From: Parcubacteria group bacterium ADurb.Bin159
GTDB taxonomy: Bacteria > Patescibacteriota > Patescibacteriia > UBA2591 > MWDC01
DNA: 64,000 nt
NCBI GenBank assembly: GCA_002070355.1
Contig: MWDC01000001.1
Span: 1,996-65,995 of the forward strand
Direction of reading: 5' to 3'
Every line of letters begins with the position of its first letter. The stretch's first letter is position 1. A program made the position numbers and the translations under genes. Below are positions 11,801 to 51,483 of this stretch, piece by piece. Under the pieces are notes generated by a model. It worked only from the letters and a program-made list of their open reading frames with translations, had not been told where the DNA came from and made no database searches.

Positions 11801-11831
11801 AAAAAATATATCAGATCTAAGATTTAGAATT

Positions 11832-13043: not shown

Positions 13044-13084
13044 AAATATGTTAAATGTTTAATATCAAAACCTTAAATTTTATT

Positions 13085-21588: not shown

Positions 21589-22467
21589 TTAATTATTTAT
21601 ATCATCCAATGTTATATAACCGCAAAGAGATCCAATTCTCCACAGAAAACCGCTGATAAAATTATATTTAAAATTTTTGTTTCCGGTTACTAATTCACAT
21701 CCAATGCCTATAAAATAGTGTAAATGGTCTATTGCATTCGGAATAAATAAAATTTCTTTTTTGGCTTTATACTTTTTTAGAATTTTCGCATTCCAAAAAC
21801 CTCTTAAAAAAATTTTTTTAAACATATCTAAAGAATTATCTACATATTGATGCTTCACTTCAAATGGTTTAAAATATATACTATATCCTTTAATTTTTAA
21901 TCTTACGTCTAACTCAGTATCATTCACCATATAAAAAGCAGGATTAGTATAACCAATTTTCTTTAAAATATCTCTTTTAATGGCAAAATTGGCTGTATCA
22001 AGCATTCCTACTTTATTATCTTTTAATCTTTCCATAAAGTACCTTCTTCCTTCCTCAGCTAAATGCTCAGTCCAATAATTTATTTTAGTTTTAGCTGGTT
22101 TCTTTAACCCCTGAACAGCCACGGCTTTATTTTTTATAATAGGTTCTATCATTTCCTCAACCCAATTGTAAGGGACAATACAATCTGAATCAGTCATTAA
22201 AATTATTTCTCCCTTGGCATTTATTTCCCCTTTATATCTTGCCGCCGCCGCTCCTTTTTTGACTTCAAATAAATATTTTACTCTTTTGTCTTTTTTTTGA
22301 AATTCTTGTATTATTTCCTTGGTTTTATCAGTAGAGTTATTATCTACAAGAATAACTTCATAATCTTGATAGGTTTGGTTTAAAACAGAATTAAGACATT
22401 CTTTTAATGTTTTTTCTCTATTATAAACCGGAATTATTATAGAAATTTTTGGATTTTTATTTTCCAT
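21589..22467 (-). CDS. glycosyltransferase family 2 (copy 2 of tandem duplicate)
   Basis: First ~200 aa identical to copy 1; about 10 substitutions in the C-terminal 90 aa. Confidence 0.75.
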   Translation of the reverse strand: MENKNPKISIIIPVYNREKTLKECLNSVLNQTYQDYEVILVDNNSTDKTKEIIQEFQKKDKRVKYLFEVKKGAAAARYKGEINAKGEIILMTDSDCIVPYNWVEEMIEPIIKNKAVAVQGLKKPAKTKINYWTEHLAEEGRRYFMERLKDNKVGMLDTANFAIKRDILKKIGYTNPAFYMVNDTELDVRLKIKGYSIYFKPFEVKHQYVDNSLDMFKKIFLRGFWNAKILKKYKAKKEILFIPNAIDHLHYFIGIGCELVTGNKNFKYNFISGFLWRIGSLCGYITLDDINN

Positions 22468-25104: not shown

Positions 25105-26806
25105 TACCCAATAAATTCAAACCCTTTTTTAAGATTTGACAAACAGCATTTACCATTAAAAGTCGGGCTTTTTCTAATTTCTCTTCACTGCCAATAACTT
25201 TATGAAAATGATAAAATTCATTAAAATTTTGAGCTAATTTTATCAGTGCTTGAGATAAATAGGCAGGATTGTAATTTTTCGCTGATTGTTTTATCGCTTC
25301 AGGCCAAAAGAAGAGCGATTCCATAATTTTAAGCTCTTCTTTTGTTTTAAGAAGAGATAGGTCTATCTCATTAATATCATTAAAATCAATTTCTTTGCCC
25401 CATTTTTCTAAAATACTTCTTGCCCGCGCATAAGTATAAAGAAGATAAGGGCCAGTTGCCCCCTCAAAAGATATTGATTCTTTTGGCTTATAAATAATTG
25501 GCCGTGATGGTTTAAAATACAAAAGATAAAATTTAACTGCTGCCAAAGCGATTTTTAACGCTCTCTCGGATAATTCATCAGAAGATATATTCGGCCAACG
25601 AGTTGATATTTCTTTTTTAGCCAAATTTTCCATTTCTAAAATAAAATCATCTATTTCTACCACTTTACCTTCACGAGATTTCATTCGTCCTTCGGGAAGA
25701 AAAACGATACCATAAGAAAGATGGTAATAATTTTTTGCGCCGGGGAAATCTAAAAGCTCTAAAATTTTAAAAAGAGATTGAAAGTAATGGTCTTGCTCAC
25801 TGGCTACTACATAAATCATTTTATCGGGTTGATACTCTTGCCATCTAAGATAAGCCAAACCAATATCTTGTGTAATATAAACACTTGTTTTATCAGCTCG
25901 CAAAAGTACTCTTTTGCCCAAATCCCCTAAATCAATTTCTATGGCTCCATCTTCTCTCTTATAGGCTGCACCCTTTTTTAGCGCTTTTTTAATAATGGAT
26001 TTGCCTAATTCGTAAATTTCACTTTCATAATAAATTTTATCAAATTTAACGCCGGTTTTTTTATAAGTTTCAAAAATACCCTCTATAGCCCAATTATTGA
26101 TAATCTGCCAAAGTTTAATTGTTTTTGGGTCGCCTTCTTCCCATTTTTTAAGAAGACAATGCGCTTCATCAACAAGAGAAGGAATTTCTTCTTTTTTCTT
26201 TTCAAAAAGAACATAAAAATCTCCTACAAAATGATCTGGCTTTTTGCCTTCTGATTGAGGGGTTTTCCTCTCCCCCCATTTTTGCCAAGCAAGCATTGCT
26301 TTAATAATATGCATACCCCGGTCATTAATTAAATTAGTTTTAATGACATTAGCTCCTAATTCAGACAAAATATTGGAGATTGCCATGCCCAAAGAATTAT
26401 TGCGCAAATGCCCTAAATGTTGTGGTTTATTGGTATTTGGAGAAGAGAATTCTATTAAAATTGTTTTATCTTTGATATCTTTCTCTTTATATTGACCAGG
26501 TTTGGCTAAAAGAATATCTTCTAAAATTGCTTTAAACCAAACATCTTTTTTAAGAAAAAAATTAAGATAAGGACCAAAATTTTTAACTTTTTCTATAACC
26601 GAAGATGGCTTAATTTTTTGACTCAAGATTTCAGCAATCTCCTCGGGCTTTTTAGAAGAATTTAAAGACAAATCAAAACATCCAATGCCTAAATCCCCCA
26701 TCTCCAAATTGGGAGGGATAATAAAATTTAATTCGCCCTTAAAATCAGGCAAAACCAATTTTAGCGAATGAAAAATTTCTTTTTTTATTTGTTCAATATT
26801 CATCAT
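25082..26806 (-). CDS. argS: arginine--tRNA ligase
   Basis: Class I HIGH region (SPNTNKPQHLGHLRN), anticodon-binding C-terminal domain, 574 aa. Confidence 0.8.
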   Translation of the reverse strand: MMNIEQIKKEIFHSLKLVLPDFKGELNFIIPPNLEMGDLGIGCFDLSLNSSKKPEEIAEILSQKIKPSSVIEKVKNFGPYLNFFLKKDVWFKAILEDILLAKPGQYKEKDIKDKTILIEFSSPNTNKPQHLGHLRNNSLGMAISNILSELGANVIKTNLINDRGMHIIKAMLAWQKWGERKTPQSEGKKPDHFVGDFYVLFEKKKEEIPSLVDEAHCLLKKWEEGDPKTIKLWQIINNWAIEGIFETYKKTGVKFDKIYYESEIYELGKSIIKKALKKGAAYKREDGAIEIDLGDLGKRVLLRADKTSVYITQDIGLAYLRWQEYQPDKMIYVVASEQDHYFQSLFKILELLDFPGAKNYYHLSYGIVFLPEGRMKSREGKVVEIDDFILEMENLAKKEISTRWPNISSDELSERALKIALAAVKFYLLYFKPSRPIIYKPKESISFEGATGPYLLYTYARARSILEKWGKEIDFNDINEIDLSLLKTKEELKIMESLFFWPEAIKQSAKNYNPAYLSQALIKLAQNFNEFYHFHKVIGSEEKLEKARLLMVNAVCQILKKGLNLLGIETIEKM

Positions 26807-27608
26807 ATAAAATTCCTACTATATCTAAATCTTTTTCTTCAAAAAATGGCCGGATGGTCGCTTCTTTGAAAAAATCACCTGCAAGATTTTTTATCTCAGA
26901 GATTTCGCCAATAATCAGTCCTTTTTCTAAATCATTTCCCGCTCCTGATGTTATAACTAAATCTCCTTTCGAAAAAAACGCTTCTTTGGGTATATATTTC
27001 ATTTTTAATTCTAACCCATATTGTCCTTCTACTATTCCATAAATCTCGTCAGTAGAAGCATTATTTGTTTGAAGAATAATACCCGCCGTTTTAAAATGGC
27101 TGTCGTAAACAGGCCAAAAATAAGAAATCTTATCTTCTGTTTTGGCTATTTCGCCAATAAGTATTCCCTCTTCATTAATTACCGGCATTCCTTTTAAAAC
27201 TCCGTCTTTTTCGCCTTTATCAATCAAAAACCAAACAGAGCCGTTCTCTTCTCTTTTCCCTATAACTCGAGTTAATTTTAAATTTTTATATCTCTCTTCT
27301 TTAAAATCAAGATATTGCCGTAAAGTTTTATTTTCTTCTTCCAATACATAAAGACGACCAAGAGAAGAAAGCGCTTTATTAAGCTCTTTTCTTAATTCCT
27401 CATTTTCTTTTTGATATGTTTCTTTATCAGCTAAGGGAGAAAATATTGACGAGGTTTTAATAGCTAAAGAATGAAATATGTTTCCTATCGGTTTAAAAAT
27501 CGAAATAAAAATGTTTCTCCCCTTAAGGGAGAAAAAAATAAAAACAAGAACAACTAATAAAATTATTATGAATTTTTTAGAGGAAATCAACGCCCAAAAA
27601 CGAGACAT
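26793..27608 (-). CDS. mreC: rod shape-determining protein MreC
   Basis: N-terminal TM, coiled coil, then beta-rich domains with a G-rich motif (ITSGAGNDLEKGLIIGEI) resembling MreC. Its start overlaps the argS stop. Confidence 0.6.
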   Translation of the reverse strand: MSRFWALISSKKFIIILLVVLVFIFFSLKGRNIFISIFKPIGNIFHSLAIKTSSIFSPLADKETYQKENEELRKELNKALSSLGRLYVLEEENKTLRQYLDFKEERYKNLKLTRVIGKREENGSVWFLIDKGEKDGVLKGMPVINEEGILIGEIAKTEDKISYFWPVYDSHFKTAGIILQTNNASTDEIYGIVEGQYGLELKMKYIPKEAFFSKGDLVITSGAGNDLEKGLIIGEISEIKNLAGDFFKEATIRPFFEEKDLDIVGILYDEY

Positions 27609-27630: not shown

Positions 27631-29055
27631 TTACAAAATTTCAGAGGAAGGAGTTTCTGGAGAAAGTTCCTCTGCTGGTTTTTCAGTGATAAATTGAAAA
27701 CTATTAATCATCATTTCAAAAGCAGTTCTAAAATTTGCTTCTTCTAATGTCCCCAAACTATAAGAAAAAATAATAATTTTGTTTTCGTTTGATAAATATA
27801 AAGTCAATCTATCCGGACTAAAAACGGCTTCTTTGCCATTAATAATGGTTTTAAGCAATTCATTTTCAAACACTCCCGGCGCAGCAGAAAGATACCATTG
27901 TAAAGGAGAGAGCATAGAAAGATTGTCTTCTACTGTTAAACTAAAACGTTCTACTGTACCTGCATCGGGAATAATTAGAATTTCTCTTTCTTCGGTTTCG
28001 GGAATAGTTTTTAAGCTCCACGAACTAGGATAAAAAATAGCCCAATGATGAGTTAAATTAGAATAAACTTTTATTAAGGAAGAAGTAGCTAATTTCGCTT
28101 CATCTCCTTTAGTAGGGTCAGTTAAATTGATTATTTCTTGACCATCGGATATGCCATCTTTATCCGTATCCGGATCATTAATTCCAGTATTAAAGAGAAT
28201 CTCTTCCATATCCGTTAAACCATCGTTATCAGAATCAAGACTTTTTTTAATTATTGGTTTTGTGTTAACTTCTTCGGTAGCAATATTAGATTTATGGCAA
28301 ACAATAGCATAAATTTCTCCCGGCAAAATATCTGTTTCTACTATTAATAAATTATTTTCTTTGTCCAATGTGGCGGGAAGAACAGACCAAAAGTTATCTT
28401 TGAAATAAGCCAAAGCTAATTTTTCTTCTAATTGAGAAGAAATGATGTTTTCTTTATAATAAGCAGTAATTTTTATGGGTTTATTAAAAGGAATATCTGC
28501 CGGGCTAATTTTATAAGGGCCAACAATCACTTGATAATCTCCTTTATTATAAATTTCAGTAAAAGGCAATTCTTCTAAATTAAAAGATGGTTCAAGGGTT
28601 GGTTCGTAGGCTCCTTCAGGTATAGACAACTCCAAAGAAGAAATTATTTCTTGATTTTGATCTTTAATGGTAGCTTTTAAATCAAGCGGTGAAGAAACAA
28701 CAACTTCTGTAGTTTCTTCCGGCGATTCAATTGGCTCTTCTATTAGATTTTCTTGAACTAAAGGAGAAGGCGAAGGGATAACTTTTGGGGTTAAATAATT
28801 AGTTTCAACCCACCAATAAAGTCCTCCCCCTATAACAAGTAAAACAAAAACAGCAATTAAAAGAATCGCCCAAGGAGAAAGACCTTTTTTTATAGATGGA
28901 CCACCCTTTTTAGCCATTGCCTTTCTAAAGGTTTCCGGCATAACATAAATTTCTTCTTCTATCTTTTCTTCTTTCACTTCTTTTAACAAATCTTTTTGGG
29001 AAACATCCGGGGTTTGGTCAAACTGCTCTTGTTTTTTGGGTTTTGATTCAAACAT
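27631..29055 (-). CDS. hypothetical single-pass membrane protein with thrombospondin type-3-like Ca-binding repeats (DxDxDG)
   Basis: Cytoplasmic K/E-rich N-terminus, TM (WAILLIAVFVLLVIGGGLYWW), extracellular region with DSDNDGLTD...DPDTDKDGISDGQE. Confidence 0.45.
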   Translation of the reverse strand: MFESKPKKQEQFDQTPDVSQKDLLKEVKEEKIEEEIYVMPETFRKAMAKKGGPSIKKGLSPWAILLIAVFVLLVIGGGLYWWVETNYLTPKVIPSPSPLVQENLIEEPIESPEETTEVVVSSPLDLKATIKDQNQEIISSLELSIPEGAYEPTLEPSFNLEELPFTEIYNKGDYQVIVGPYKISPADIPFNKPIKITAYYKENIISSQLEEKLALAYFKDNFWSVLPATLDKENNLLIVETDILPGEIYAIVCHKSNIATEEVNTKPIIKKSLDSDNDGLTDMEEILFNTGINDPDTDKDGISDGQEIINLTDPTKGDEAKLATSSLIKVYSNLTHHWAIFYPSSWSLKTIPETEEREILIIPDAGTVERFSLTVEDNLSMLSPLQWYLSAAPGVFENELLKTIINGKEAVFSPDRLTLYLSNENKIIIFSYSLGTLEEANFRTAFEMMINSFQFITEKPAEELSPETPSSEIL

Positions 29056-29107: not shown

Positions 29108-32100
29108 CTATTCTGAAACACATACTGTTGGACGCTCTATGCAATCAGATCCCGGATAACATTTTTTACAACAACAATCATCACCTAATTTTGGTCCACA
29201 TGTAGCAATTCCTCCACAGGTATTCCAACCGCTTGGACAATTTCCAAGTGGTAATTCACTTTTAGGTATACAGCTACCCTGATAACAAACTCTAGAACCA
29301 GAACCGTCGCCACATACGGTACAATTGTTAGCATTATTACAACTGCTAGATCCGGGTCCAAGCCCATCGCAAATTTTGCAAACACCGCAAGAATCGCCCT
29401 TTTGTTTAAATGCATCTGCCGGACACGAAGCAGAGCTACCACTACAATATTCTTCTTTGTCGCAAGCACCAGCTGCCGGTCGACAAGGAGCATCAACCTC
29501 ACTCCCACCTGAGCAAACTTTATTGGCTGCTACATTAGCGACATCATCACCTTTATCATTAGTTGGACCAGTCGGACAACTACTAGAAGTGCCACTACAT
29601 TTGTAAACATCTCTTTTTTTCTGGCATTGCCCATTACACCCATTCCAACTAGAATAACCACAAATAGTACCCTCTGATTTAAAACGACATCCATCACAAC
29701 AAGCACTTTCTTCTGAACATTGGCAAGCAAACCACACTCCGCCTCTGCAATATTCTTTATCTCCGTCGTCATCTACATCAACAACTGTATTTGTAGGTTG
29801 GCAACCGTTATGAGCACAATATGTTGGAGAGGAGCAACAAGCTCGGTCAGTAGAATCAGAAGAACAAGCGCCACTATTGCAAGTTCTAGTTTTATAATAT
29901 TCTCCTGAATCATCGCCACAACACATATTATACCAACAAGCACTATCTACATTTCCATATGTATATCCCCAACCATAATTGCTACTCTGACAAGAATCTT
30001 TATTGAAATCACAATCATTATTATAAGGATCTCCGGAACAACCGTTCTTATTATCGCCGCAACCCCTGCATTGACCATATGAATCACAAAAATATCCTGT
30101 AGTATTACCTATGTTACATTTAGTAAACTTTGGTTTAAATACATCTGTCGGGCACGAAGCAGAGCTACCACTACAATATTCTTCTTGGTCACAATCGCCA
30201 GCTGCCGGTCGACAAAGGGTAGTGTCTGATCTAAAACGGCAACCATCACAACAATCATTTTCTACTGAACATTGGCAAGCATACCATTTTCCACCGCTAC
30301 AAAATTCTTTATCTCCATCGCCATCTACATCATCAACTTTACCTGTAGGTTGGCAACCGTTATGAGCACAATATGTTGGAGAGGAGCAACAAGCTCGGTC
30401 AGTAGAATCAGAAGAACAAGCACTACCATAAGGACTGCTATCGCATACTCTGGTTTTATAAAATTCTCCTGAATCATCGCCGCAACACATATTATACCAA
30501 CAAGCGCTATCTACATTTCCATATGTACATCCCCAACCATAATTATTACTATACCTACAAGAATCTTCATTGAAATCGCAATCATTATTATAAGGATTTC
30601 CGGGACAACCGTTCCCATTATTACCGCAACCCTTGCATTGACCATATGAATCACAGAAATATCCTAAAAGGCAATTATGTTGTCCTGAGGTATAATAATC
30701 GCAAATGCCGGTATTATTTTGGCAATAACCTGTTAAACAACCACTAGTGCCACATTGATCATTAGGATCCATATCGGAATTATATGAACTTGATACTTTC
30801 TTACATTCTCCATTATAACAATATTCACAAACGCCATTGCCACAGGGCTCAAAATCATCTTTTATAATATGACATCCATCACAACAATCATTTTTTACTG
30901 AACATTGGCAAGCATACCATTTTCCGTTACTACAATATTCTTTATCTCCGTCGCCATCTACATCGATAATTGTACCTGTAGATTGACAACCGTTATAAGC
31001 ACAATATGCTGTAGAGGAGCAACAAGCCCTATCACCAGGATTAGAAACACAAGCGCCACTATTGCAAATTCTAGTTTTGGGGAATTCTCCTGAATCATCA
31101 CCGCAACATTTACCTGACCAACAATCGCCAGTTGCATTTCCGAAAGTATTTCCCCACTGATAACCCCTTGTCCCATAAAGAGAAGAACAAGTAGGGGGAT
31201 CAAAATCGCAATCGTAACTGAAATTTGGGGAGCAACCATTATCACTGTTATTACTGCCGCAACCCTTACATTCACCATTTTGACAAAATTCATTACTATG
31301 GCATGCTTTTTCACAATACTTACAATGGTTTTTATCAGTATTTAAATTAATTTCACATCCATTAGAAGCATTTTGATCGCAATTCCCATATCCCGGATTA
31401 CAATATATTCCCGAACAATCGTAATGACAAGTGCCATTAGCTACCTGTATTTTTGTGTCGCAAACCTCACCACAATTTAAATTTATTTTTCCATTCCCAC
31501 AAGCCAAAGTCCAATTCGATTCTTGACAAACATAATTTTTATTTTCCCAATTAACACAAGAATCTTCATTAAGACAACAAGTATCTTTATCACTGCATTT
31601 TTGCCTTTCCGGATTAAGACATTGAGAAGCCAAGCAACCAAAAAATTCTGCTTCTGAATGTTTGTATTCTACATTAAAAGCAGTAGTAGGGCACATACAG
31701 TTAAAATTTTCTTCACAGAAACAAATTGGTTCAGGTGTTATTTCAAACGGCCGTGGTTCGCAAACTCCATTCCATTGGCATAAAAAATGTTTTTTACATT
31801 CAAATTCTGTTTCATAATTATAGCAATTTGATTTCCAATTTTCAGGCTGGGCATATTCAAAATGAGCGTATAATTTATATCCTCCCCCTACTTCTTTAGT
31901 TAAGGGGTTGATTGTCGCTCGATAAAGATAAATAAAAGAATCATCAGGTACACTATATGTTTTGTTTTTTAGATTGAAACAAGTTCCATCACATTGGGGA
32001 TTATCTTCCGGACAACTAGCGCATTGTTTTGCTCCAAAAACGTTTAAAGGATCAACAGGCAAAGATTTTCCCAAAGCCACGCCTAATGTTTCTTGCCAAG

Positions 32101-32398
32101 AAGGCCATTTAGAACTGCTCATTCCGGCAATATAAGTGCCGCTTTCTAATTTAGGATAATAGCCAAACTTATTCTTATAATCTTCTAAAAATTGGGCTAT
32201 AACTTGGATATCTCTTAATCTTTGCCAATCTCTCTGTATTTTTGCTTTGTCGTCTTGAGTAATTGAATAACCCCCTTCTGCTTGAACCGAAAGAATTTGT
32301 TTTACCACAAAAACGCCAATAACAAAAATAATTATACTTAATATAATCCCGATATACTTTTTTTGTTTTGAAAAATATTTAAACATAATGATTTTCAC
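29108..32398 (-). CDS. secreted/anchored cysteine-rich repeat protein (1096 aa) with possible pilin-like N-terminal region and three ~200-aa Cys-rich tandem repeats
   Basis: N-terminal hydrophobic anchor. The segment DIQVIAQFLEDYKNKFGYYP resembles the post-helix region of type IV pilins/pseudopilins (inference). Three repeats share CGxNxNGC..NNDCDFN..DSACWYNMCCGDDSGE..DRACCSSPTYCAHNGCQPT..VDVDGDGDKEYC..ACQCS..CCDGCRF. Confidence 0.5.
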   Translation of the reverse strand: MKIIMFKYFSKQKKYIGIILSIIIFVIGVFVVKQILSVQAEGGYSITQDDKAKIQRDWQRLRDIQVIAQFLEDYKNKFGYYPKLESGTYIAGMSSSKWPSWQETLGVALGKSLPVDPLNVFGAKQCASCPEDNPQCDGTCFNLKNKTYSVPDDSFIYLYRATINPLTKEVGGGYKLYAHFEYAQPENWKSNCYNYETEFECKKHFLCQWNGVCEPRPFEITPEPICFCEENFNCMCPTTAFNVEYKHSEAEFFGCLASQCLNPERQKCSDKDTCCLNEDSCVNWENKNYVCQESNWTLACGNGKINLNCGEVCDTKIQVANGTCHYDCSGIYCNPGYGNCDQNASNGCEINLNTDKNHCKYCEKACHSNEFCQNGECKGCGSNNSDNGCSPNFSYDCDFDPPTCSSLYGTRGYQWGNTFGNATGDCWSGKCCGDDSGEFPKTRICNSGACVSNPGDRACCSSTAYCAYNGCQSTGTIIDVDGDGDKEYCSNGKWYACQCSVKNDCCDGCHIIKDDFEPCGNGVCEYCYNGECKKVSSSYNSDMDPNDQCGTSGCLTGYCQNNTGICDYYTSGQHNCLLGYFCDSYGQCKGCGNNGNGCPGNPYNNDCDFNEDSCRYSNNYGWGCTYGNVDSACWYNMCCGDDSGEFYKTRVCDSSPYGSACSSDSTDRACCSSPTYCAHNGCQPTGKVDDVDGDGDKEFCSGGKWYACQCSVENDCCDGCRFRSDTTLCRPAAGDCDQEEYCSGSSASCPTDVFKPKFTKCNIGNTTGYFCDSYGQCRGCGDNKNGCSGDPYNNDCDFNKDSCQSSNYGWGYTYGNVDSACWYNMCCGDDSGEYYKTRTCNSGACSSDSTDRACCSSPTYCAHNGCQPTNTVVDVDDDGDKEYCRGGVWFACQCSEESACCDGCRFKSEGTICGYSSWNGCNGQCQKKRDVYKCSGTSSSCPTGPTNDKGDDVANVAANKVCSGGSEVDAPCRPAAGACDKEEYCSGSSASCPADAFKQKGDSCGVCKICDGLGPGSSSCNNANNCTVCGDGSGSRVCYQGSCIPKSELPLGNCPSGWNTCGGIATCGPKLGDDCCCKKCYPGSDCIERPTVCVSE

Positions 32399-32451: not shown

Positions 32452-35400
32452 TTATTCTTTATTGGTGTTAAACCTCCAATTTTTTATCAATTGCTCGTAA
32501 ATATCCAAAGTTTCTGGTTTGGCATTATCGCTATAAGAGAGTAAATAAATTAAACTTTCTATTTGTTGATTTTCTTTTCCCGGATTAATTACATTAAGGG
32601 CGCCAACATAAACTGTCCGTCCGCTTCTAATAGCCGGATAACCGTCGATTTTTAAAGATGTGTAACCTTCTGTTTCTTGAATAGGAATATTTTTCACAGT
32701 AGTTTTATACCACTCTTCCGGAGTTAAATAATCCGGATTTTCATATACTCGCAAACCAATAATGTCCTCATTTTCTAAATTAGAAAAAATCCATTCTTTT
32801 CTTAAATTCGAATCCTGGCTCGGGTTTGGAGAAAATCTTCTAAGTCCAGGTAAAACTGATTCCTTATATTCATCTAATCGAAACATTGTTTCATCAATAT
32901 AAAAATCGCTACCATTTTCTCCTGTATTGTTATAACCAATGCTTAACCCAATTTCATTTCTCAAATTACCTTGACTATCTAAAGTTTGAGTCATTCCCTC
33001 GGTATATTTAAATTTATAAGTAAACAAAGCCCAATCTTGATAATTTCCTTTTGGAATTATACCTAAGGATATGACTGGATAAGAAGATGTTTGATAAGGC
33101 CATTGCACAAATCTACATTTACAGCAAGAATCAGTACTATGACTTATCCGAGTTTCTAAATCTTTATTCAGATATTGACATTCTTGGCTGCATCGTCCTG
33201 CTTTTTGACAATAGTCTAAAGAAGAACTTTGTCCACACCAGCCGAGATTATAACATAATGTTAGACTGATATCTCCCGCCAAATGTCCTTTCCCATAAAA
33301 ACTAAAAATATAATCTTGTCCAGGAATTAAATTAAAAGGAGTAGTGTCATAAACAGCTCGCGCCCACATTGTTCGATTAGTATAGGGCCAAACTAAATCT
33401 TTAGATTCAGATACTTGACAGCTACCACAATTTGGATCATCGGCAAAATCACAAATTTTTTCAGTCCCTTTCCAGACACATTTATTAGCGTAAGGAAAAC
33501 TTAAAGGCCAAGAACCATTTTTTATTCCACTACAAATATCATTACGGCATTGACCAGGATAAGGCTCATTCGCATCTTGATGAATAAGTAAACTATTTTG
33601 TCCCGTATAAGACTCGATTGGATTTATACTTACATTAGAATGGCTTTGAAAACTCCTCTGCCATTGATTACTATTAAAGAGAAGAACTTTACCTATGTTT
33701 CCGCGACAATATTTGAGTTCAAAATTTGTTTCCGTATCTTCAAAGGACCAGGGCATTTCACAAAGATAATTTTCCACACTAGCATAATCAGAAACTGTCA
33801 CTTCTTTATTATTATTTACTTCAGCTTTAGCTATTACTTCGGTAAAGCCATTTTGATTTTGAGACATTATTTTTTGCGTAGAACCATCTTCATCTTTGTC
33901 ATCAGGAAGAGAAATAACTCCCGCATTAGTAAAACTCCATGTATAAGACCAGTTATAATTTTCTGTTCCTTCAATCTCTTGATCATCTTCTGAATAAGCA
34001 GTGGCTTGTAAACTTAAAGAAAGATTGGGTTTTTGAAAAAGAATATTTTTAGATGATTCTACTTTAATATAATCTGCATCAGATAATGAACCATCTATTA
34101 CTGAAATATTAATTTTAGATAATGCGCAAGGATCCTCAGCGGTTTTAAATTGCCAAACTTTGCCCGGAGACATTGCTAATTCGTATTTGCTTTTAACTCC
34201 TGTTGGCCCTCCTAAAATAATTACTTTATAAAAAGTGTTTAAAGATAGTCCCCATTGAGATTCGTTTGGTTTAATATAAATTGTAGTCTTATTATTTTTA
34301 GTTACCGATGAAAGCTTTGGCGATATTTCCTGCCAAATTATTTCATCCCATTGAATAATTGGCACAGTCGCTATTTTATAATCTTGTTTAGTAAAAGGAA
34401 AAGATTCTCTTTCTGATAATGTTCCTCCCCCATTTGAAGCCATTGTTCCCTTATAAAGTTTTATTGTTTCTTTATTCAAACTATTTGTCTCCATTGCTTG
34501 GTCAAAAGTGGCAGAAATAATAGTATTAGGGCAAACATTTTGCGAGTAATCAGCCGGACTAAATGTTTCCACTACCGGATGAGTGGCCACAATTAAAGGA
34601 GCACGGTCGGATTGACCCCCCTCTGTCTTTTCTACTTTAACATAAACTTCACCCAAACCTTTGCTGACAACTTTGGCTGTAGAAAGGGATTCTCCGGGTG
34701 TTCTTTCTTTAAAAGCAGCGATATTTTCCGGTGTTAACCAAGAATCTTTTTTTTCTAAACTCCATACCCAATCACTATAATCATCTGCTGATAAATAATT
34801 ACAATTAGATGAATAGACCTCTGTTTTATATGAAATTTCCTTTGGTTCGTCGGGGTAATATATCATACCTTTTCGAGGCGTTAAACAAACTTTATTCAAA
34901 GAACACTGTTTATCACCTGTTTTAAAGATCCAAACATAATCATCATCAGGAGAACCATCTTTTTTATTGTTTTTGTTTCCATCTAATGGCCAACCAAAAA
35001 TAGCGTCTCTTATCCCATTAGGACCACTTCTAAGAATAACTTGATAAATTGTGGAAGGATCAAGATTAATTTTGATTAAAAGTAGGGTCTCTTCATCATC
35101 TGTTTCTATATAACGATTGTTTATATCCCAAGAAACATTTTCCCATTTATTTTTACAATCATCTAATTTAGATTGATTACATTTTTCAATGATAACATTA
35201 GAGGAGTCAAGAGTAGTTTCCTCCATTTTATGATTAAATCTTACCCCGATTCGGCTATTAAGACAATTATCTGAAGAATCCGGCCAAGGTGAAGGAGATT
35301 GGCCCTTTAAATCACAAACATCACAATTTTTATTTTCTATAACCTGAGGAAGACCAGTGGGGCTTACCTTTAAATAAGCGCAAGTACGGTCTTTTTCCGG

Positions 35401-38400
35401 GCTGGCAATGCAACTTTTTTCTGAAGTTGAAGCCTTAATGAAGGTCTCCCCATAATATTTAGAAGTAGCTGTAGTAGAAAGTCCGTAAGGGGGTGATGAA
35501 ACACTGGCTACAGTATTATCTGTCGCCTCCCACGTAAAATCATCTACGCAAACCGGTTTGCCATCTGAATCTAAGGCTAAAGCAGCAAAAGAAAGAGTTT
35601 TATTAAGTCCTTTTATAATTACCGGACCGCGAGGGTAAACATTAATTTGAGCCACTTTACATGTTTTTGTTTTATCTGTGCTAACTTGAAAATTAACACT
35701 ATAACATTTTAAATCGTTATTCCAAGTACAAGGAATGGCATTGCTATTCTCAAAAGAAACGCCCTTATCGGATATAATTCCTTTTCCATTAGCACTGCTA
35801 ATAATTTCTACTTCGTATATTTGACCATCTATTAAAAGACAATTGCTCGGATAAAAAACAACTTTTGTTTTATCTCCTTCATTCCCCAAACTAATCCTGC
35901 CATTAAGATAACATCTTTTCTCCTTATCTTTATAAATTCCTTCCCCTTCTCCACAAGCATCAGCTTGTCTTGACACTTTAATATTATCTGTGGTTAAAGA
36001 ACCATAATTCATTAACTGATCAAAATTAATTTCAATGGAAGTATTCATCCCCACTTTTCCATCCTCTGTTGAGCAAGTTTTAATAGATTCAATTTGCGGT
36101 TTAGCCCAACAACATTTATTCTCATCTAAAAATCCACAACCCAGAGTTGCTCCGCACTGGCTATCTTTAGTGCAATCGCAACATAAACCTCGAGAAGGGC
36201 TATCGCAAGGAGCAATATTTTTTATGCAGTGTAATTTTCCGCATTGGTTATCATTATTACAACAACAACGACAATCTTCTTGGCTATTATTAGATAAACA
36301 AACGAAAGAACCTTGGCAAGTGTCCGCGCCCGCAGCGCAAACAGAAGAATTCTCTAATTTACAATTTTGCCCCGGTTTGCCAATGTCAATATTAATTTTA
36401 AAAGGAAGTTTATTACTCGGATTATTCCCCAGAGGAGAAACCCAAACCTTGCCTTGGCCAGCAGAAAGACCAAAAGGGACAACAGATTCTATCTTTTTAT
36501 CTCCCCAAGAACTCCCTTCACTCTCCTGAATCACTGATTTTATATCTTCAAAATTAATTTTCCCCGCGCTGCTGCCAAATGATTGGCCAAATAAATTAAC
36601 CGAATCATTAATTTTGCCTTGATTTGGTTCAACTTTAGAAAGGCAAGCTCCCATAGCCGTTCCTTCTATTGTCTTAAAACTTGTTAAAACATATTCTTTT
36701 TCTGGAATTTGGCAATGCCCTTCCTTTAAACAATTACCTTCACAATAATCCCAACCGCTTACACATTTATTACTATCAATTCGGCAACAAGGTGTTTTTT
36801 CTGGACAGTCATCATTAGTTTGACAGGCACCTAATCCTTTAATTACTCCACTTGTCTCTTGGCTAAAACCAGAATAAACTGTTTCTGTCCCTCTTTTAGC
36901 TCTTACTTTATAAGTATATGAATCTCCTTTTATAAATGTTCCGTTATTTTCAAAAATATAATCTCCTCCTTGTTTTATAAAAATAAAATTATTTGAAGGA
37001 TTAGGAGAACAAGTATTATCAATTAAAGAACAAGTGGTTAAAAGATTAAAATTTAATTGCTTTGATGTTCTTTCGTAAATTTCAAAAGCTGTGGCTAAAT
37101 TAGAAGGATCGTTATAATTCCATTTTAATTTTATTTGAGTCAAAGTTGAGGCTGGTATTGCCAAACCAGTCGGTTTAGGAAAAACCACACATTTATTCTC
37201 AAAACAAGTTTTCCCAATCATATTTTCCGGTGAAGTGTTTTCAGGAAAACAATCTTTATCTTCATTACAATCTCCACCAATAAACGGATCGTTTTCTTCG
37301 GTCAAGCAATCACTAAAATTAAAAGTACAATCAGAATTACACAATAAATTACCTCCAACATAATTATCATCAAAATCAACACAATTTTTTCCTCCTAAAT
37401 CATCGCCATCGCACTCTTCATTCTCATCTTTTGTCCCATCATAATTACAAGGAGATAAACCCTGACAAATACAAGTAGTTTCATCACAAACATTAGAAGC
37501 GCAAATATTATTATCAGCTTGACAGCCCTCTGTATTTTCATCCATATCACAATAAGCCCCCTGACAAAGTCCACAATCCGCTCCTCCACAATCAACTCCT
37601 CCTTCATCTTCATCAATAACTCCGTTAAAGCAATGTCCGGCTCTAATAAACGCTATTTTTTCTTTTTCGTCTAAATTATCAGCAAAATCATAAGCTTCTA
37701 TTTTAATTTTGTGCTGACTGCTAATTTCTAAAAGAGAAGTATCCCAATTATATTCATAATTATATTCTCCTGCTGCGGGTGTTCCGTTTTGAATATCTTC
37801 TATATCCCAAGTATTATCGCTGTTTAAATCAATTTTAAAAATAACTAAATTAATCCCTGCATCGTCGTAAATAGTTGTTTTAATTTTAATATTTCCGGAA
37901 GGTACATATTTACCTTGCGAAGGTTCAAAAACAACGCTCTTAATTTCCGGATTTTGAGTATCTACCATATTATTTGTTTTGAATGTCCACGAACAATTTC
38001 CATTATTACAATTAAGATTTTGTCCATTTTCACTAGTTACATTAGATGAAATAACTACTTTATATGAAGAATCGCCGTCAAAACAATGAAGAGTGGCATT
38101 ATCCGGACAAAATGCTTCGGGTGTAAATTTAACTTTTTTCCCTTCTGCTAATTGCTCTAAAGAACCGCTTACTATTGTCTCGTTTTCGTCTATTACTTTA
38201 CTAATAATAAAATTTGTGTTGTTTACGCTCTCTGTGTTTACGGTTTTATTAAAAATAGCGCTGACTATGGAATTTTTCGGCACAGTAACTCCTTTTAAAG
38301 GAGCAATATTTTTAATATAAAAAGGGCTTGGACCCGGCGGTGGCACGTCTTCACAATTAAGGCAACTATTGTCAAATTGCCAAATACCGTTAAGACAACG

Positions 38401-38844
38401 CAAGCAGCCTGAGCAAGTTCCCGAGATATCGCATTCTTTTCCTATAATTTCTTCGTTAGTTAAAATATCTTTTTCAATGGCTCTAATAATAAACCAAGAA
38501 ATAGAATAAGCCAAAACCACAATGATTAAACCAATCAAACCATTAATCATTAACTTTTTGGCTTTATCAATTTTTTCCTGATTGCCGCCGGAACTCATCC
38601 ATTGAAAGCCGCCGATGATGATAATAATTGTGGCTATTAAACCTAAAAACCCTAAAACCCATTTTATAATATTACCAATAACAGTTACTAAAGGCGTAGT
38701 GGGTAATTGTGAAGTGGTTAAAACTTCTTCCATTCCTTCGGTTAATTCTGCAGCAAAAACCGGACTAGTTATTCCTAAAACTGTTCCGATTATTATAAGG
38801 ATTAAAAAAATATTAAGGGTTTTGTTTTTGTTAAAAAACAACAT
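32452..38844 (-). CDS. giant surface protein (2130 aa): pilin-like (VirB2/TrbC-type) N-terminal module plus Cys-rich, bacterial Ig-like and beta-sandwich domains
   Basis: N-terminus has signal peptide, ELTEGMEEVLTTSQ, two TM helices (LVTVIGNIIKWVLGFLGLIATIIIIIGGF / LMINGLIGLIIVVLAYSISWFI), identical over ~125 aa to the 38930-41701 protein. Downstream are multiple Ig-like repeats and Cys-rich modules. Confidence 0.5.
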   Translation of the reverse strand: MLFFNKNKTLNIFLILIIIGTVLGITSPVFAAELTEGMEEVLTTSQLPTTPLVTVIGNIIKWVLGFLGLIATIIIIIGGFQWMSSGGNQEKIDKAKKLMINGLIGLIIVVLAYSISWFIIRAIEKDILTNEEIIGKECDISGTCSGCLRCLNGIWQFDNSCLNCEDVPPPGPSPFYIKNIAPLKGVTVPKNSIVSAIFNKTVNTESVNNTNFIISKVIDENETIVSGSLEQLAEGKKVKFTPEAFCPDNATLHCFDGDSSYKVVISSNVTSENGQNLNCNNGNCSWTFKTNNMVDTQNPEIKSVVFEPSQGKYVPSGNIKIKTTIYDDAGINLVIFKIDLNSDNTWDIEDIQNGTPAAGEYNYEYNWDTSLLEISSQHKIKIEAYDFADNLDEKEKIAFIRAGHCFNGVIDEDEGGVDCGGADCGLCQGAYCDMDENTEGCQADNNICASNVCDETTCICQGLSPCNYDGTKDENEECDGDDLGGKNCVDFDDNYVGGNLLCNSDCTFNFSDCLTEENDPFIGGDCNEDKDCFPENTSPENMIGKTCFENKCVVFPKPTGLAIPASTLTQIKLKWNYNDPSNLATAFEIYERTSKQLNFNLLTTCSLIDNTCSPNPSNNFIFIKQGGDYIFENNGTFIKGDSYTYKVRAKRGTETVYSGFSQETSGVIKGLGACQTNDDCPEKTPCCRIDSNKCVSGWDYCEGNCLKEGHCQIPEKEYVLTSFKTIEGTAMGACLSKVEPNQGKINDSVNLFGQSFGSSAGKINFEDIKSVIQESEGSSWGDKKIESVVPFGLSAGQGKVWVSPLGNNPSNKLPFKINIDIGKPGQNCKLENSSVCAAGADTCQGSFVCLSNNSQEDCRCCCNNDNQCGKLHCIKNIAPCDSPSRGLCCDCTKDSQCGATLGCGFLDENKCCWAKPQIESIKTCSTEDGKVGMNTSIEINFDQLMNYGSLTTDNIKVSRQADACGEGEGIYKDKEKRCYLNGRISLGNEGDKTKVVFYPSNCLLIDGQIYEVEIISSANGKGIISDKGVSFENSNAIPCTWNNDLKCYSVNFQVSTDKTKTCKVAQINVYPRGPVIIKGLNKTLSFAALALDSDGKPVCVDDFTWEATDNTVASVSSPPYGLSTTATSKYYGETFIKASTSEKSCIASPEKDRTCAYLKVSPTGLPQVIENKNCDVCDLKGQSPSPWPDSSDNCLNSRIGVRFNHKMEETTLDSSNVIIEKCNQSKLDDCKNKWENVSWDINNRYIETDDEETLLLIKINLDPSTIYQVILRSGPNGIRDAIFGWPLDGNKNNKKDGSPDDDYVWIFKTGDKQCSLNKVCLTPRKGMIYYPDEPKEISYKTEVYSSNCNYLSADDYSDWVWSLEKKDSWLTPENIAAFKERTPGESLSTAKVVSKGLGEVYVKVEKTEGGQSDRAPLIVATHPVVETFSPADYSQNVCPNTIISATFDQAMETNSLNKETIKLYKGTMASNGGGTLSERESFPFTKQDYKIATVPIIQWDEIIWQEISPKLSSVTKNNKTTIYIKPNESQWGLSLNTFYKVIILGGPTGVKSKYELAMSPGKVWQFKTAEDPCALSKINISVIDGSLSDADYIKVESSKNILFQKPNLSLSLQATAYSEDDQEIEGTENYNWSYTWSFTNAGVISLPDDKDEDGSTQKIMSQNQNGFTEVIAKAEVNNNKEVTVSDYASVENYLCEMPWSFEDTETNFELKYCRGNIGKVLLFNSNQWQRSFQSHSNVSINPIESYTGQNSLLIHQDANEPYPGQCRNDICSGIKNGSWPLSFPYANKCVWKGTEKICDFADDPNCGSCQVSESKDLVWPYTNRTMWARAVYDTTPFNLIPGQDYIFSFYGKGHLAGDISLTLCYNLGWCGQSSSLDYCQKAGRCSQECQYLNKDLETRISHSTDSCCKCRFVQWPYQTSSYPVISLGIIPKGNYQDWALFTYKFKYTEGMTQTLDSQGNLRNEIGLSIGYNNTGENGSDFYIDETMFRLDEYKESVLPGLRRFSPNPSQDSNLRKEWIFSNLENEDIIGLRVYENPDYLTPEEWYKTTVKNIPIQETEGYTSLKIDGYPAIRSGRTVYVGALNVINPGKENQQIESLIYLLSYSDNAKPETLDIYEQLIKNWRFNTNKE

Positions 38845-38929: not shown

Positions 38930-41701
38930 TTATAAGTAATTCTTGTAATCCTGCAAAATTTGTTCCGCCGTGCGAGCGTAATCATAAATTTTAACTTCAT
39001 CGATGAGACCCTTGAACTCTTCTCTTCCGCTTGCCGCACGTCTACCGATTGCAATTGTATGATTAGCATCTGAAAACACTGGGATGCTTGAAGCATATGA
39101 GCCAGAACCAACTCGAGTTCCATTTACGTATATAGTATAACTAGTAGGCGTGACTACATATACAATATAATACCAAGTATTAAGTTGATAACGAAAAGGG
39201 GCATCTGCCCTAATAGTAATCCAATCTGTTCCATATTTAATCTCACCATTTCCATATCCAATATCACCATGTATAGCAGTTCCATACTGAAACTTTATAT
39301 CAAAACCATAGTAATTGGGACTTCTTGTGCCAATAATACAGCGAATATTAGTATCTTTAACCATTGCCCACGCTCCCACTGTAAAACTACCTATTATAGT
39401 AGGATTTCCGCAATTTACATAATCGTCTACTCCGTCAAAACTTAAACATTTTCCTGATTTGCACATATCTTCGGATTGCCAAGTAGCACCATAAATCTTG
39501 CCATCGTTATTATTGACGCTGTCGTCATAAGCAGTACTTCCATGTCCCTCATCAAACCGCCAATAAGCCACTGGCGGCAGCGACAGTCCGGCAGTTATTT
39601 GACCCTGAACTGCCGGCGTTATTTTTATATTATCTTTTAACCCCTTTACATCCGACGGGATTCGTATAACTATATTATTTTCCGGAGAATAATTTTTAGG
39701 GCATTCTTCTTCAGACAAACAAACAGAAGGGTCATCTTTTGAAGGACAACAGCGATTTATTTCTTGCCAAGAAAGAATATTATTGCTTAATATTCCCTGC
39801 CAAACATCAGTGCCGTTAGTATTAGTTAAAAATTCTATTTTCCCTTTTTCTGCAGCTAATTTACATCCTCCATTTATATAATCCCAAAAAAAATTTTGGG
39901 ATTGCTTGTCGCTTTCACATTTCCCGTCAGGGCAACATCCTAAATTATAGCCATGAATAGTAACACATTGGCCAATTGCACCCGAAGGTGGGTCGATCCA
40001 ATCAATATAAGGATTTCCTTTATTAATTTGCCCGCTTGTCTTAAATGACCAGCGATAATAAGACGCTTCCATACTATTGCCATAAATATCTCTTACTCCA
40101 AAAGCAAAATCAGGATCCAAATTACAAGTTTCTCCTTTTTTTTCTCCACCATAAATTGTAGCTTGATAATTAGTTTCTGCGTCTAAAATAGCATAAGGTT
40201 TATAAATAGCTCCCTTTTCTGAAATTGTTATTTCTCGAGCTAACATTGAAGAAAGAATAAAAACATCCTCATTAATAGAGGTTGGGTCAATGGCTTCATT
40301 AAAATTAGCCATCACATCACTCATCCGGTCAATATCTTTTTCTTGATTCGCTGGTGAAGTAGAAATAATTTCCGGACCAGTTAGATCAAACTCTTCATTC
40401 GTTTGAAACGTCCAAGAGCATTTTCCATTTCCGCAATCTAAATCCATACAATTTGTTCCTTTAAGTCCGGTTATTTCTACTTTAATGGTACTATTAGCCG
40501 GAAAACAATGACAAGCAGCCGCCTCTCCGGGACAAAGGTCAGTCGGCCTAAACATAAAACTTTTATCTGTTAACCGTTCAAAATATCCTGGCACTCCATC
40601 TTCACCTATTTTTACTTTTATAGTAGCATCATTTAAGCTGTTTGTTGACCAAGATTGGCATTCCTGCCCTTCTGCGCAATTTGGATTATAAACAATCAAA
40701 GTATTAATATCTATAGGTTTAGTAAAAGTAACGGCAATGCCAGCGTTTCTCGCCACAGTATTACCTTCTAAAGGCAAAGCGCTTTCTATTTGGGGCGCTA
40801 CATTATCTATAAAATTTCCCACAGTAAAAGTCCACACAATATCTTGACCTAAAGTGTTTCCCCCAGATCGGGTGCCTAAAATTCCTTCTTTTCCGCTTTT
40901 TAACATTATACGATAGCTCCCGGGATTAAAACAACCGCAACAGCTGTTATTCTTAAAAATAAAATTACAATCTTTATTTCCATCTTCTTTAATTTCACAT
41001 TGAGAAAGAAGATTCTCACAAGTTCCTTTAGGAATAAAAATAAAACTATTCCCTTTAACTATAATAGACCCTTCTATATTAGTGCTATTGCCTCCTTCTA
41101 TTTTTTGAACATAAACTGTCGGATTAGAGCAATTTTCTTTGTCTAATCTAAAACTATCAGCATTAAGTTTTTGATTAAAACTAACTATTACTTTAGTATT
41201 TTGTGCCACCGTTTCTCCGGCTTTTGGCGACCGAGAAGTTATGACTAAATAATTGGCTCCTCTGAGCTGATAATGGTTCCCCGGTCCCTCTTCGCCCCAT
41301 CCCCCTCCTTCTTCTCCTGGACCGATATTTTCTTCAATGGCTCTAATGATAAACCAAGAAATAGAATAAGCCAAAACCACAATGATTAAACCAATCAAAC
41401 CATTAATCATTAACTTTTTGGCTTTATCAATTTTTTCCTGATTGCCGCCGGAACTCATCCATTGAAAGCCGCCAATGATGATAATAATTGTGGCTATCAA
41501 ACCTAAAAACCCTAAAACCCATTTTATGACATTGCCAATAACAGTTACTAAAGGCGTAGTGGGTAATTGTGAAGTGGTCAAAACTTCTTCCATTCCTTCG
41601 GTTAATTCTACAGCAAAAATGGGGCTAGCCATTCCTAAAATTGCCCCGATTATCATCACGATTAAAAAAATATTAAGAATTTTGTTTTTATTAAAAAACA
41701 T
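38930..41701 (-). CDS. large surface protein (923 aa): same pilin-like N-terminal module, Ig-like (Big_5-type) repeats and a C-terminal LamG/concanavalin-A-like domain
   Basis: The N-terminal 125 aa are a near copy of the 32452-38844 N-terminus (about 95% identical at DNA level, 41318-41701 vs 38460-38844). The C-terminus (VAYWRFDEGHG...GLIDEVKIYDYARTAEQILQDY) matches the LamG repeats of the 48-52 kb genes. Confidence 0.5.
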   Translation of the reverse strand: MFFNKNKILNIFLIVMIIGAILGMASPIFAVELTEGMEEVLTTSQLPTTPLVTVIGNVIKWVLGFLGLIATIIIIIGGFQWMSSGGNQEKIDKAKKLMINGLIGLIIVVLAYSISWFIIRAIEENIGPGEEGGGWGEEGPGNHYQLRGANYLVITSRSPKAGETVAQNTKVIVSFNQKLNADSFRLDKENCSNPTVYVQKIEGGNSTNIEGSIIVKGNSFIFIPKGTCENLLSQCEIKEDGNKDCNFIFKNNSCCGCFNPGSYRIMLKSGKEGILGTRSGGNTLGQDIVWTFTVGNFIDNVAPQIESALPLEGNTVARNAGIAVTFTKPIDINTLIVYNPNCAEGQECQSWSTNSLNDATIKVKIGEDGVPGYFERLTDKSFMFRPTDLCPGEAAACHCFPANSTIKVEITGLKGTNCMDLDCGNGKCSWTFQTNEEFDLTGPEIISTSPANQEKDIDRMSDVMANFNEAIDPTSINEDVFILSSMLAREITISEKGAIYKPYAILDAETNYQATIYGGEKKGETCNLDPDFAFGVRDIYGNSMEASYYRWSFKTSGQINKGNPYIDWIDPPSGAIGQCVTIHGYNLGCCPDGKCESDKQSQNFFWDYINGGCKLAAEKGKIEFLTNTNGTDVWQGILSNNILSWQEINRCCPSKDDPSVCLSEEECPKNYSPENNIVIRIPSDVKGLKDNIKITPAVQGQITAGLSLPPVAYWRFDEGHGSTAYDDSVNNNDGKIYGATWQSEDMCKSGKCLSFDGVDDYVNCGNPTIIGSFTVGAWAMVKDTNIRCIIGTRSPNYYGFDIKFQYGTAIHGDIGYGNGEIKYGTDWITIRADAPFRYQLNTWYYIVYVVTPTSYTIYVNGTRVGSGSYASSIPVFSDANHTIAIGRRAASGREEFKGLIDEVKIYDYARTAEQILQDYKNYL

Positions 41702-51462: not shown

Positions 51463-51483
51463 TTTCCAATAGCCGACTAATCC

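Follow-up and report, generated by a model that had tools for sequence, protein, structure and literature searches.

Candidate phyla radiation (CPR) bacteria have an episymbiotic lifestyle, with which a role in attachment for their surface proteins fits, yet how the uncultivated members of the CPR, or the archaea of the DPANN group, attach to their hosts is poorly understood and their large surface proteins are mostly unannotated. Disintegrins are all-disulfide folds, and those of snake venoms and ADAM proteins work on receptors via their loops; we know of no function for the disintegrin-type repeats of prokaryotes. Large cysteine-rich extracellular CPR proteins have been proposed to serve in attachment, and those of the Peribacteria are variable between strains and weakly similar to Myxococcus-type cysteine-rich repeats (Anantharaman et al. 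2016, PMC4736985). VirB2-like pilins and type IV secretion systems (T4SS) matter for epibiotic Patescibacteria (PMC12857230). The subject here is a gene for a very cysteine-rich protein of 1,096 amino acids (aa) in a stretch of 64,000 nucleotides, referred to below as the window, from contig MWDC01000001.1 (positions 1,996 to 65,995) of Parcubacteria group bacterium ADurb.Bin159 (assembly GCA_002070355.1). The gene occupies nt 29108-32398 of the window on the minus strand, which is also the strand of all other window features for which coordinates are given below.

We put at roughly 0.6 the probability that its product is a Sec-exported, disulfide-stabilised, modular surface protein acting as a distal or adhesive partner of a giant protein with a VirB2-like anchor that is encoded directly upstream. 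It would be exported, with probable signal cleavage at VQA|EGG, and its first domain, here named Y, would dock non-covalently on a domain, X, that forms the outer end of the membrane-anchored giant, so that docking would recreate a composite polypeptide that other CPR bacteria encode as one chain. The rigid cysteine-rich region beyond Y would then make up the outside of a long surface fibre and be its most variable portion, on which loops of ‘xCD’ type and units beginning with CCGDD may be the contact surfaces for attachment to other cells or particles.

The open reading frame (ORF) starts with GTG and its fifth codon is an in-frame ATG (32386), at which the GenBank form of 1,092 aa starts; GenBank already holds the identical protein as ‘MAG: Disintegrin [Parcubacteria group bacterium ADurb.Bin159]’ (MAG, metagenome-assembled genome), on a 132.8-kb contig. 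In a window with a G+C content of about 32%, the protein has 135 cysteines, 12.3% of its residues. Like the Peribacteria proteins it is a large, signal peptide-bearing and very cysteine-rich product of a CPR genome, but in a comparison by description those average about 7% cysteine and neither CCGDD nor disintegrin modules have been reported for them (PMC4736985). Mapping of homologues onto the sequence reveals a mosaic in which a signal peptide or anchor is followed by Y, a cysteine-rich linker, three repeats and a cysteine-rich tail.

A probable partner is suggested by the junction with the upstream gene. Y comprises aa 45-216 (nt 31751-32266) and is an uncharacterised domain delimited by homologue mapping, a profile hidden Markov model (HMM) and profile comparison. 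The upstream gene (32452-38844) encodes a 2,130-aa surface protein that, by Pfam, BLAST and HMM matches, has a T4SS_pilin/TrbC (VirB2-like) N-terminus, Big_5 immunoglobulin (Ig)-like domains and, as its last 147 or so aa (1984-2130; nt 32455-32895, from BLAST and HMM), the domain X, which ends with NWRFNTNKE* and whose terminal sequence is ...IYEQLIKNWRFNTNKE*. This segment is 41% identical to its counterpart in P0011 and 35% identical to that in P0026, and in both of these it directly precedes Y within one polypeptide. Among 48 metagenomic relatives of Y, 40 have X and Y in the same ORF with a gap of 0-82 aa, either in short Sec-secreted proteins (signal, X, Y; about 280-500 aa) or in giants whose Y starts some 1,800-2,000 aa in. 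Five of the eight exceptions are cut by contig ends, and L081 and L085 are split forms with a hydrophobic N-terminus of their own, as in the present protein. The window contains X and Y once each, at facing ends of adjacent genes, and the HMMs find Y in the target with an independent E-value (iE) of 7.6e-82 and X at the C-terminus of the upstream product with iE = 5.7e-67. As the two domains are fused elsewhere and divided here, a specific protein–protein contact between them is predicted. In its own right, X-Y is a conserved two-domain unit that has no family annotation (metagenome loci L065-L112; P0026, P0011). The idea that the target is an artefact or a frameshifted extension of the upstream ORF was ruled out because the frames differ, with a 53-nt gap, because the target has its own signal sequence, and because the same split is found in L003, L081 and L085.

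What follows Y differs greatly between relatives. The orthologue P0004 shares the head of the target, made up of Y and the first cysteine-rich region (35% identity over aa 9-349), and L069 does likewise (42% over aa 87-337), but after the shared head both carry other cysteine-rich modules with no CCGDD core. Beyond Y the relatives have anything from no further sequence to about 2,000 aa, and where this region is at least 500 aa long its cysteine content is 0.7-14.8%. Such variability of the distal part among orthologues suggests a surface for contact or adhesion. In the target the linker (aa 217-376; nt 31271-31750; homologue mapping) has a CGNG...GEVCD motif, seen by eye at aa 300-313, and one ‘GYGNCD....NGCEINLNTDKNHC’ unit, of which Myxococcota-like proteins have many copies and P0004 about 10. 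A freely secreted effector or toxin, whose disintegrin-like loops would bind or block a host-cell receptor outside any fibre, could have the same signal peptide, and the way in which the disintegrins of venoms and ADAM proteins act on receptors by their loops is a precedent for it. We regard this as quite improbable, as the X|Y split together with the fused form in 40 of the 48 relatives argues for attachment to the giant, and very large size and repeats are typical of stalk-like surface proteins.

The distal part of the target, by which the proposed adhesive partner would make its contacts, consists largely of three repeats. A preliminary description of the window, made from the sequence alone, had reported three consecutive repeats of about 200 aa, almost identical in places, with about 20 cysteines each and with DNA counterparts visible as duplicated antisense ORFs. 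The repeats are real: pairwise protein identity in segment alignments is 53-71%, and the scores exceed those of composition-preserving shuffles by 35-53 standard deviations (z). Their periods are 211 and 189 aa, but the conserved unit is shorter than had been described, at about 150-175 aa. Alignment with relatives gives 20 conserved cysteine columns per repeat, as claimed, with 24-31 cysteines per period, and the antisense ORFs have their match in DNA repeat families, namely D1, with three 300-nt copies that are 71-79% identical and lie 552 and 633 nt apart, and the shorter pairs D2 and D4, which are 87-91% identical. The ratio dN/dS among the copies is 0.45-0.60. Tandem Repeats Finder reported no repeat in the target DNA because the period exceeds its 500-nt limit and the copies have diverged; self-BLASTP of the protein returned the identity match alone, and the segment alignments were used instead.

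Each repeat has two parts, a core of about 120 aa and a tail of about 45 aa with the consensus CCDGCRF...CRPAAGxCDxxEYCSGSSASCPxD. From repeat alignment and HMM, R1 (aa ~377-527; nt 30818-31270) has the full core, i.e., an N-terminal half and a CCGDD unit, and a degenerate disintegrin-like tail. R2 (aa ~588-761; nt 30116-30637), for which matches to Pfam and a PDB profile were also used, has the full core and an intact tail, CRPAAGDCDQEEYCSGSSASCP, at aa 729-750 (nt 30149-30214). R3 (aa ~777-995; nt 29414-30070; repeat alignment, Pfam and HMM) has the full core, the CCDGCRF start, an inserted cysteine-rich segment and then a second disintegrin-like motif, CRPAAGACDKEEYCSGSSASCP, at aa 972-993 (nt 29420-29485; Pfam and motif scan). 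All three have DVDGDGD or DVDDDGD (aa 479, 690 and 874), via which calcium is possibly bound. Beyond the repeats is a C-terminal cysteine-rich tail (aa 996-1096; nt 29111-29413) with no family match in the Pfam scan; its conservation with L069 was suspected by eye, but BLAST gave no support.

The preliminary description had suggested that the repeat may be a novel cysteine-rich type, and for the core this holds. The ~120 aa have no match in Pfam or NCBIfam even at E <= 10, nor in PDB sequences, and NCBIfam has no family at E <= 10 for the target as a whole. Within the fetched set the full core is restricted to six proteins: the target with its three copies, P0013, from a MAG labelled Nanoarchaeota, P0066, P0096, P0166 and the P0116 cluster. 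That cluster includes OQB44407.1 (P0178), from a different, 74-kb contig of the ADurb.Bin159 MAG itself; this paralogue is 609 aa long and combines a signal peptide with a single full core, its disintegrin-like tail and a C-terminal domain in common with P0013 and P0166, which shows that this organism uses the core module in at least two predicted surface proteins. A word-indexed search with the core alone yielded one new protein, represented by a partial sequence in the 0.1-0.22 um size fraction of TARA.

A sub-unit of the core is, however, widespread. Its C-terminal 70 or so aa form the CCGDD unit, in which CCGDD..E is followed by a variable loop, ACC-x5-C-x4-C, often DxDxDG, and C-x2-G-x-W. 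When one genome per GTDB species was scanned for this pattern, the unit turned up in no fewer than 59 species. Most of these are DPANN archaea (Woese-, Undin-, Aenigmat-, Pace-, Nano-, Alti-, Micr- and Iainarchaeota) and Methanosarcinales MAGs; the few bacteria include Saccharibacteria, another Patescibacteria genome, KSB1, Aminicenantes and a few others. Pattern-based counts of this kind are lower bounds, and the taxa of MAG contigs are as labelled in the deposited records. In those proteins (loci L006-L064) the unit occurs in tandem, with up to 15 motifs per ORF, and the carriers inspected are large, with signal peptides and Ig- or fn3-like domains; L029 and L040 are on a 1.1-Mb Aenigmarchaeota contig. 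The HMM of the unit matches the target three times (iE 8e-31 to 2e-30), each time over all 69 model positions, and the invariant columns of the target are common to 40 diverse units. A 498-aa stretch made purely of CCGDD units has no Pfam match at E <= 1, a profile of the unit found nothing among PDB sequences, and in the searchable literature CCGDD is absent as a protein motif.

The target thus has the same ~70-aa unit as the DPANN and Methanosarcinales proteins, whose carriers also have signal peptides, but in its family an extra segment of about 50 aa precedes the unit and a disintegrin tail follows it, the host is a CPR bacterium, and there are three copies only. The extra segment has the form C-x6-C-x8-C-x6-C...W..YG..CW; an HMM detects none in 59 CCGDD loci, though a few tblastn matches reach into it. 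Gene transfer could explain why the unit occurs in the CPR as well as in DPANN, both of them groups of ultrasmall symbionts. Other described cysteine-rich repeats are not recognisable: the CysRRep spacing Cx6-9Cx5-7Cx8-11Cx7-8CC (Daugavet et al. 2026, preprint, 10.64898/2026.06.07.730663), applied as a regular expression, has no match in the whole target, where the core cysteines are spaced C-x6-C-x8-C-x6-C-x17-21-C-x4-CC, and for a Myxococcus-type cysteine-rich repeat there is neither an NCBIfam profile match nor a DUF4215 match in Pfam. A single-repeat AlphaFold2 model (R2, 10 sequences) reached a predicted local distance difference test score (pLDDT) of 45 and its Foldseek search of the PDB was not significant, so that it was set aside.

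The loop of the CCGDD unit bears on the chemistry of the cysteines. Between CCGDD and the next CC, counted in the 156 distinct units for which the motifs on both sides were identified, there are no cysteines in 66, one in 2, two in 87 and three in 1, whereas about 76 units with a single cysteine would be expected if the two positions were independent; all three units of the target have two. The count was made per loop, rather than by a column-wise Fisher test of co-occurrence, because loop lengths vary. Loop cysteines are therefore gained and lost in pairs, as a disulfide predicts, which speaks against independent metal ligands, at least for that pair. An alternative in which the cysteines and DxDxDG bind metals (Cu, Zn or Fe) in the manner of MopE, for metal capture or extracellular redox chemistry, draws on Pfam Cu-binding_MopE (PF11617), carried by homologues of the aa 305-400 region and weakly matched by one archaeal CCGDD protein outside its CCGDD units, and on an anaerobic habitat that disfavours disulfides. 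We find it improbable: in addition to the pairing, the target itself has no PF11617 match, neither a haem motif nor a metal site rich in His or Met was noted, and the repeat tail is homologous to disintegrins, which are all-disulfide folds. The ‘disulfide-knotted extracellular module’ of the preliminary description is supported by the Sec-type signal, the paired gain and loss of loop cysteines and the disintegrin homology.

That homology is confined to the repeat tail, which matches the C-terminal half of the Pfam Disintegrin domain (PF00200), the only Pfam family found on the whole target (E = 2e-6, 28.9 bits, two stretches). Single repeats score 27.6 and 25.4 bits. They cover model positions 22-75 or 46-75, leaving positions 1-21, in the N-terminal half of the domain, uncovered in every repeat of the target; the relative P0013 covers positions 6-75. 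A repeat profile run against PDB sequences retrieved solved disintegrins (1rmr, 1l3x, 9lt3 and others; E = 3e-3 to 4e-3) with an alignment spanning CCxxCxF...CR.....CD..E.C.G.S..CP.D, and the cysteine framework of the C-terminal half, CC..C........CR.....CD..E.C.G.....CP.D, is satisfied by the target, with the motif occurring at aa 729 and at aa 972. Its loop belongs to the ‘xCD’ type of ADAM proteins (DCD, ACD; A-A-G-D/A-C-D) and does not read RGD. In an exhaustive HMMER search, 1.84 billion representatives yielded 1,935 matches at E <= 1e-3, nearly all of them to the ~36-aa disintegrin motif alone in 10-30 copies per protein; as the query alignment included the tail, multi-copy disintegrin proteins dominated and proteins with CCGDD alone are under-reported. 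All four multi-copy proteins scanned are strong Disintegrin members (E = 3e-73 to 3e-137), P0028 having 28 stretches at E = 3e-137, and they also carry subtilase, DUF11 or cohesin/dockerin domains; one such multi-copy protein bears the JGI name ‘cysteine-rich repeat protein’.

By these profile matches the repeat tail belongs to a known family, widespread in prokaryotic multi-repeat proteins, with which it has in common CC-x2-C-x8-C-R-x5-C-D-x2-E-x-C-x-G-x5-C-P-x-D and an extracellular, cysteine-rich setting. The search of a repeat unit against Pfam and the PDB that the preliminary description had called for therefore takes back part of its own claim of novelty, for the tail but not for the core. 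The target differs from the established Disintegrin proteins in having only two intact and two degenerate copies with a score below the cut-off, in having the CCGDD core in place of the N-terminal half of the domain, and in having no metalloprotease domain. A literature search for ‘disintegrin’ together with Parcubacteria found nothing relevant.

At the other end of the protein is the segment that the preliminary description had compared to type IV pilins. Sequence reading of aa 1-40 (nt 32279-32398) gives a Lys-rich n-region (KYFSKQKK), a hydrophobic core at aa 15-32 and the possible cleavage site already mentioned, so that the N-terminus is a predicted Sec-type signal or signal anchor. There is no G-F-T-L-x-E prepilin leader, and hence no motif of the prepilin peptidase type sought, in the target, nor did a regular expression find one in the six reading frames of the window. 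The top profile matches of aa 1-217 are to T2SSG (PF08334; 13.0-13.4 bits) and TIGR01710 (GspG; 12.4 bits) with E of about 0.1, far below the respective cut-offs of 21 and 88.85 bits. T2SSG is the sole family that recurs for Y: three of five members match it, and in a larger set 10 of 30, the lowest E being 0.0044 and no score exceeding the threshold. When the Y family profile was compared with Escherichia coli GspG by hhalign, 27-29 columns covering the alpha1C helix and ‘YP’ turn were aligned (P ~1e-3, probability 19-23%) and a GspH control gave nothing; in Y the motif concerned is LRDIQVIAQFLEDYKNKFGYYPKLESG. Against PDB sequences a 3-sequence profile of Y found nothing and a 30-sequence profile had a best E of 0.26. 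AlphaFold2 modelling of the N-terminal region (5 sequences) gave a pLDDT of 50, with a helix at 48-78 and then short strands, and Foldseek found nothing in the PDB below E = 4 with this low-confidence model.

There is thus a reproducible local resemblance to one GspG helix-turn motif, in that the hydrophobic heptad helix of Y, ending ..Y...G.YP, aligns with alpha1C in part of the family, but the claim of a pilin-like N-terminus does not extend beyond this. In contrast to GspG the target has no class III leader and no conserved Glu5, and Y is usually internal, after X, with conserved cysteines and a much longer C-terminal part. A scan of 38 other window ORFs, from which nine ORFs of at least 150 aa were left out, detected no pilB, pilC or pilD. 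Judged by these sequence features the target is not a type IV pilin, whose defining features it lacks. A genuine pilin- or pseudopilin-like subunit, perhaps a large minor pilin or tip adhesin processed by prepilin peptidase and built into a type IV pilus or the pseudopilus of a type II secretion system, would accord with the recurrence of T2SSG/GspG as the only family for Y, with the hhalign result, and with the use of type IV pili for host contact that is reported for CPR bacteria (PMC9894109, PMC11623550). We consider it very improbable in view of the missing leader, the sub-threshold scores, the non-significant PDB profile and fold searches, the lack of assembly genes among the ORFs scanned, and the position of Y after X in 40 of 48 relatives, which have Sec-type signal peptides.

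The neighbours of the target are on the same strand, with gaps of 53 nt upstream and 52 nt downstream that contain no predicted terminator or promoter. Further upstream of the 2,130-aa giant is a gene for a 923-aa protein that also has a T4SS_pilin/TrbC N-terminus and then Big_5 Ig-like domains. The preliminary description had called these neighbours giant pilin-like proteins; their N-termini are of the T4SS-pilin (TrbC/VirB2-like) kind and not of the type IV pilin kind, PF18895 scoring 40 bits, above its cut-off, in both. In this they are like the VirB2/TrbC-like pilins of Patescibacteria T4SS loci (PMC12857230), but here the domain heads proteins of 923 and 2,130 aa instead of a small pilin, the target itself has no T4SS_pilin/TrbC domain, and there are no T4SS genes among the same 38 scanned ORFs. 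The first 125 or so codons of the two genes (38470-38844 and 41327-41701) encode nearly identical amino acid sequences, after which the proteins diverge; the shared part is the signal peptide and the two-helix T4SS_pilin/TrbC domain, and the near identity suggests a recent duplication or an exchange of anchor modules between different giants.

Downstream of the target are a gene for a 474-aa membrane protein with a bacterial TSP3 repeat of the calcium-binding type (27631-29055; Pfam and synteny) and then mreC (26793-27608; Pfam and synteny), the end of the syntenic block, so that the target is placed between the giants and MreC as had been described, except that the 474-aa gene intervenes. A second CPR contig, L003, has the same order of a giant (43% identity over 1,704 aa, ending ...NWQFNINVE*), P0004, an orthologue of the 474-aa protein (48% identity), mreC, a 164-aa gene and PBP2. 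In that contig TAATG (5655-5660) contains both the giant's stop codon and the start codon of P0004, an overlap that suggests translational coupling; the equivalents in the window are 53 nt apart. Co-transcription, which the preliminary description had considered probable, is plausible given the common strand, the short gaps with no predicted terminator or promoter, and the synteny in the second contig.

This neighbourhood is also the basis for the main alternative to an adhesive partner, a membrane-anchored scaffold of the envelope that spans or organises the wall, is tied to the elongation machinery (mreC, an mreD-like gene, PBP2) and is not adhesive. The block of giant, cysteine-rich protein, TSP3 protein and mreC is kept in two CPR contigs, with the 164-aa gene and PBP2 next in L003, and the hydrophobic N-terminal segment of the target could stay as an anchor. 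We nevertheless hold such a scaffold to be unlikely. The distal cysteine-rich part is swapped wholesale among orthologues, as is common in interaction surfaces and seldom the case in a housekeeping scaffold. Elsewhere, X-Y proteins lie away from mre genes, and the adjacency may be inherited synteny.

Several points weigh against an exported adhesive partner docked on the giant. If the N-terminus stays as an uncleaved anchor, Y would be at the membrane, and docking on the distal end of the giant would need another geometry. The organism lives in an anaerobic digester, and no Dsb or other disulfide-forming enzyme was found among the 38 other ORFs scanned. The Disintegrin score of the target is below the Pfam gathering threshold of 35.1 bits, both AlphaFold models are of low confidence, so that no fold backs the proposed picture, and the synteny of two fairly related CPR genomes may be a matter of shared ancestry only.

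The deposited protein itself, large cysteine-rich surface proteins of the CPR and disintegrin-type repeats in prokaryotes were already known, and current ideas on that recognised class of surface protein are refined here rather than overturned. What is new is the delineation of a predicted disulfide-bonded repeat of about 70 aa, CCGDD, which is outside Pfam, NCBIfam and the PDB and has a mainly DPANN distribution, a rare extended core fused to a disintegrin tail, and a junction between X and Y, a domain pair in some 50 metagenomic proteins, that is split here over two genes in a way that predicts a specific contact. To these is added the swapping of the cysteine-rich distal part among orthologues, as would befit an interaction surface. 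From the standpoint of fibre architecture the split could mean a two-component structure, with a giant shaft, held by a VirB2-like anchor, capturing non-covalently an exchangeable cysteine-rich tip whose modules, CCGDD units linked with loops of the disintegrin type, would come from a host-attachment toolkit shared or exchanged between CPR and DPANN; this wider proposal we regard as doubtful.

The remainder of the window has housekeeping genes typical of the CPR, among them those for aminoacyl-tRNA synthetases, GreA, RecJ, MreB, MreC and glycosyltransferases. Two adjacent genes for 292-aa family-2 glycosyltransferases (20634-21512 and 21589-22467) have essentially identical Pfam scores, which suggests tandem duplication, and they cluster with a GT4 glycosyltransferase, an epimerase and an ABC-2 exporter. 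At 10310-14017 the genes for a RuBisCO large-subunit homologue, a thymidine/AMP-phosphorylase-like protein and an IF-2B family member adjoin, a trio that we take to be the nucleotide-salvage (AMP) pathway of archaea and the CPR. At 48202-52278 two genes follow each other, the first for a 264-aa protein in which a transmembrane segment accompanies a single LamG domain, the second for a protein of 1,086 aa that has five LamG/pentraxin-like domains and lacks an obvious signal sequence, a pair that may be another surface protein divided into an anchor and a distal part.

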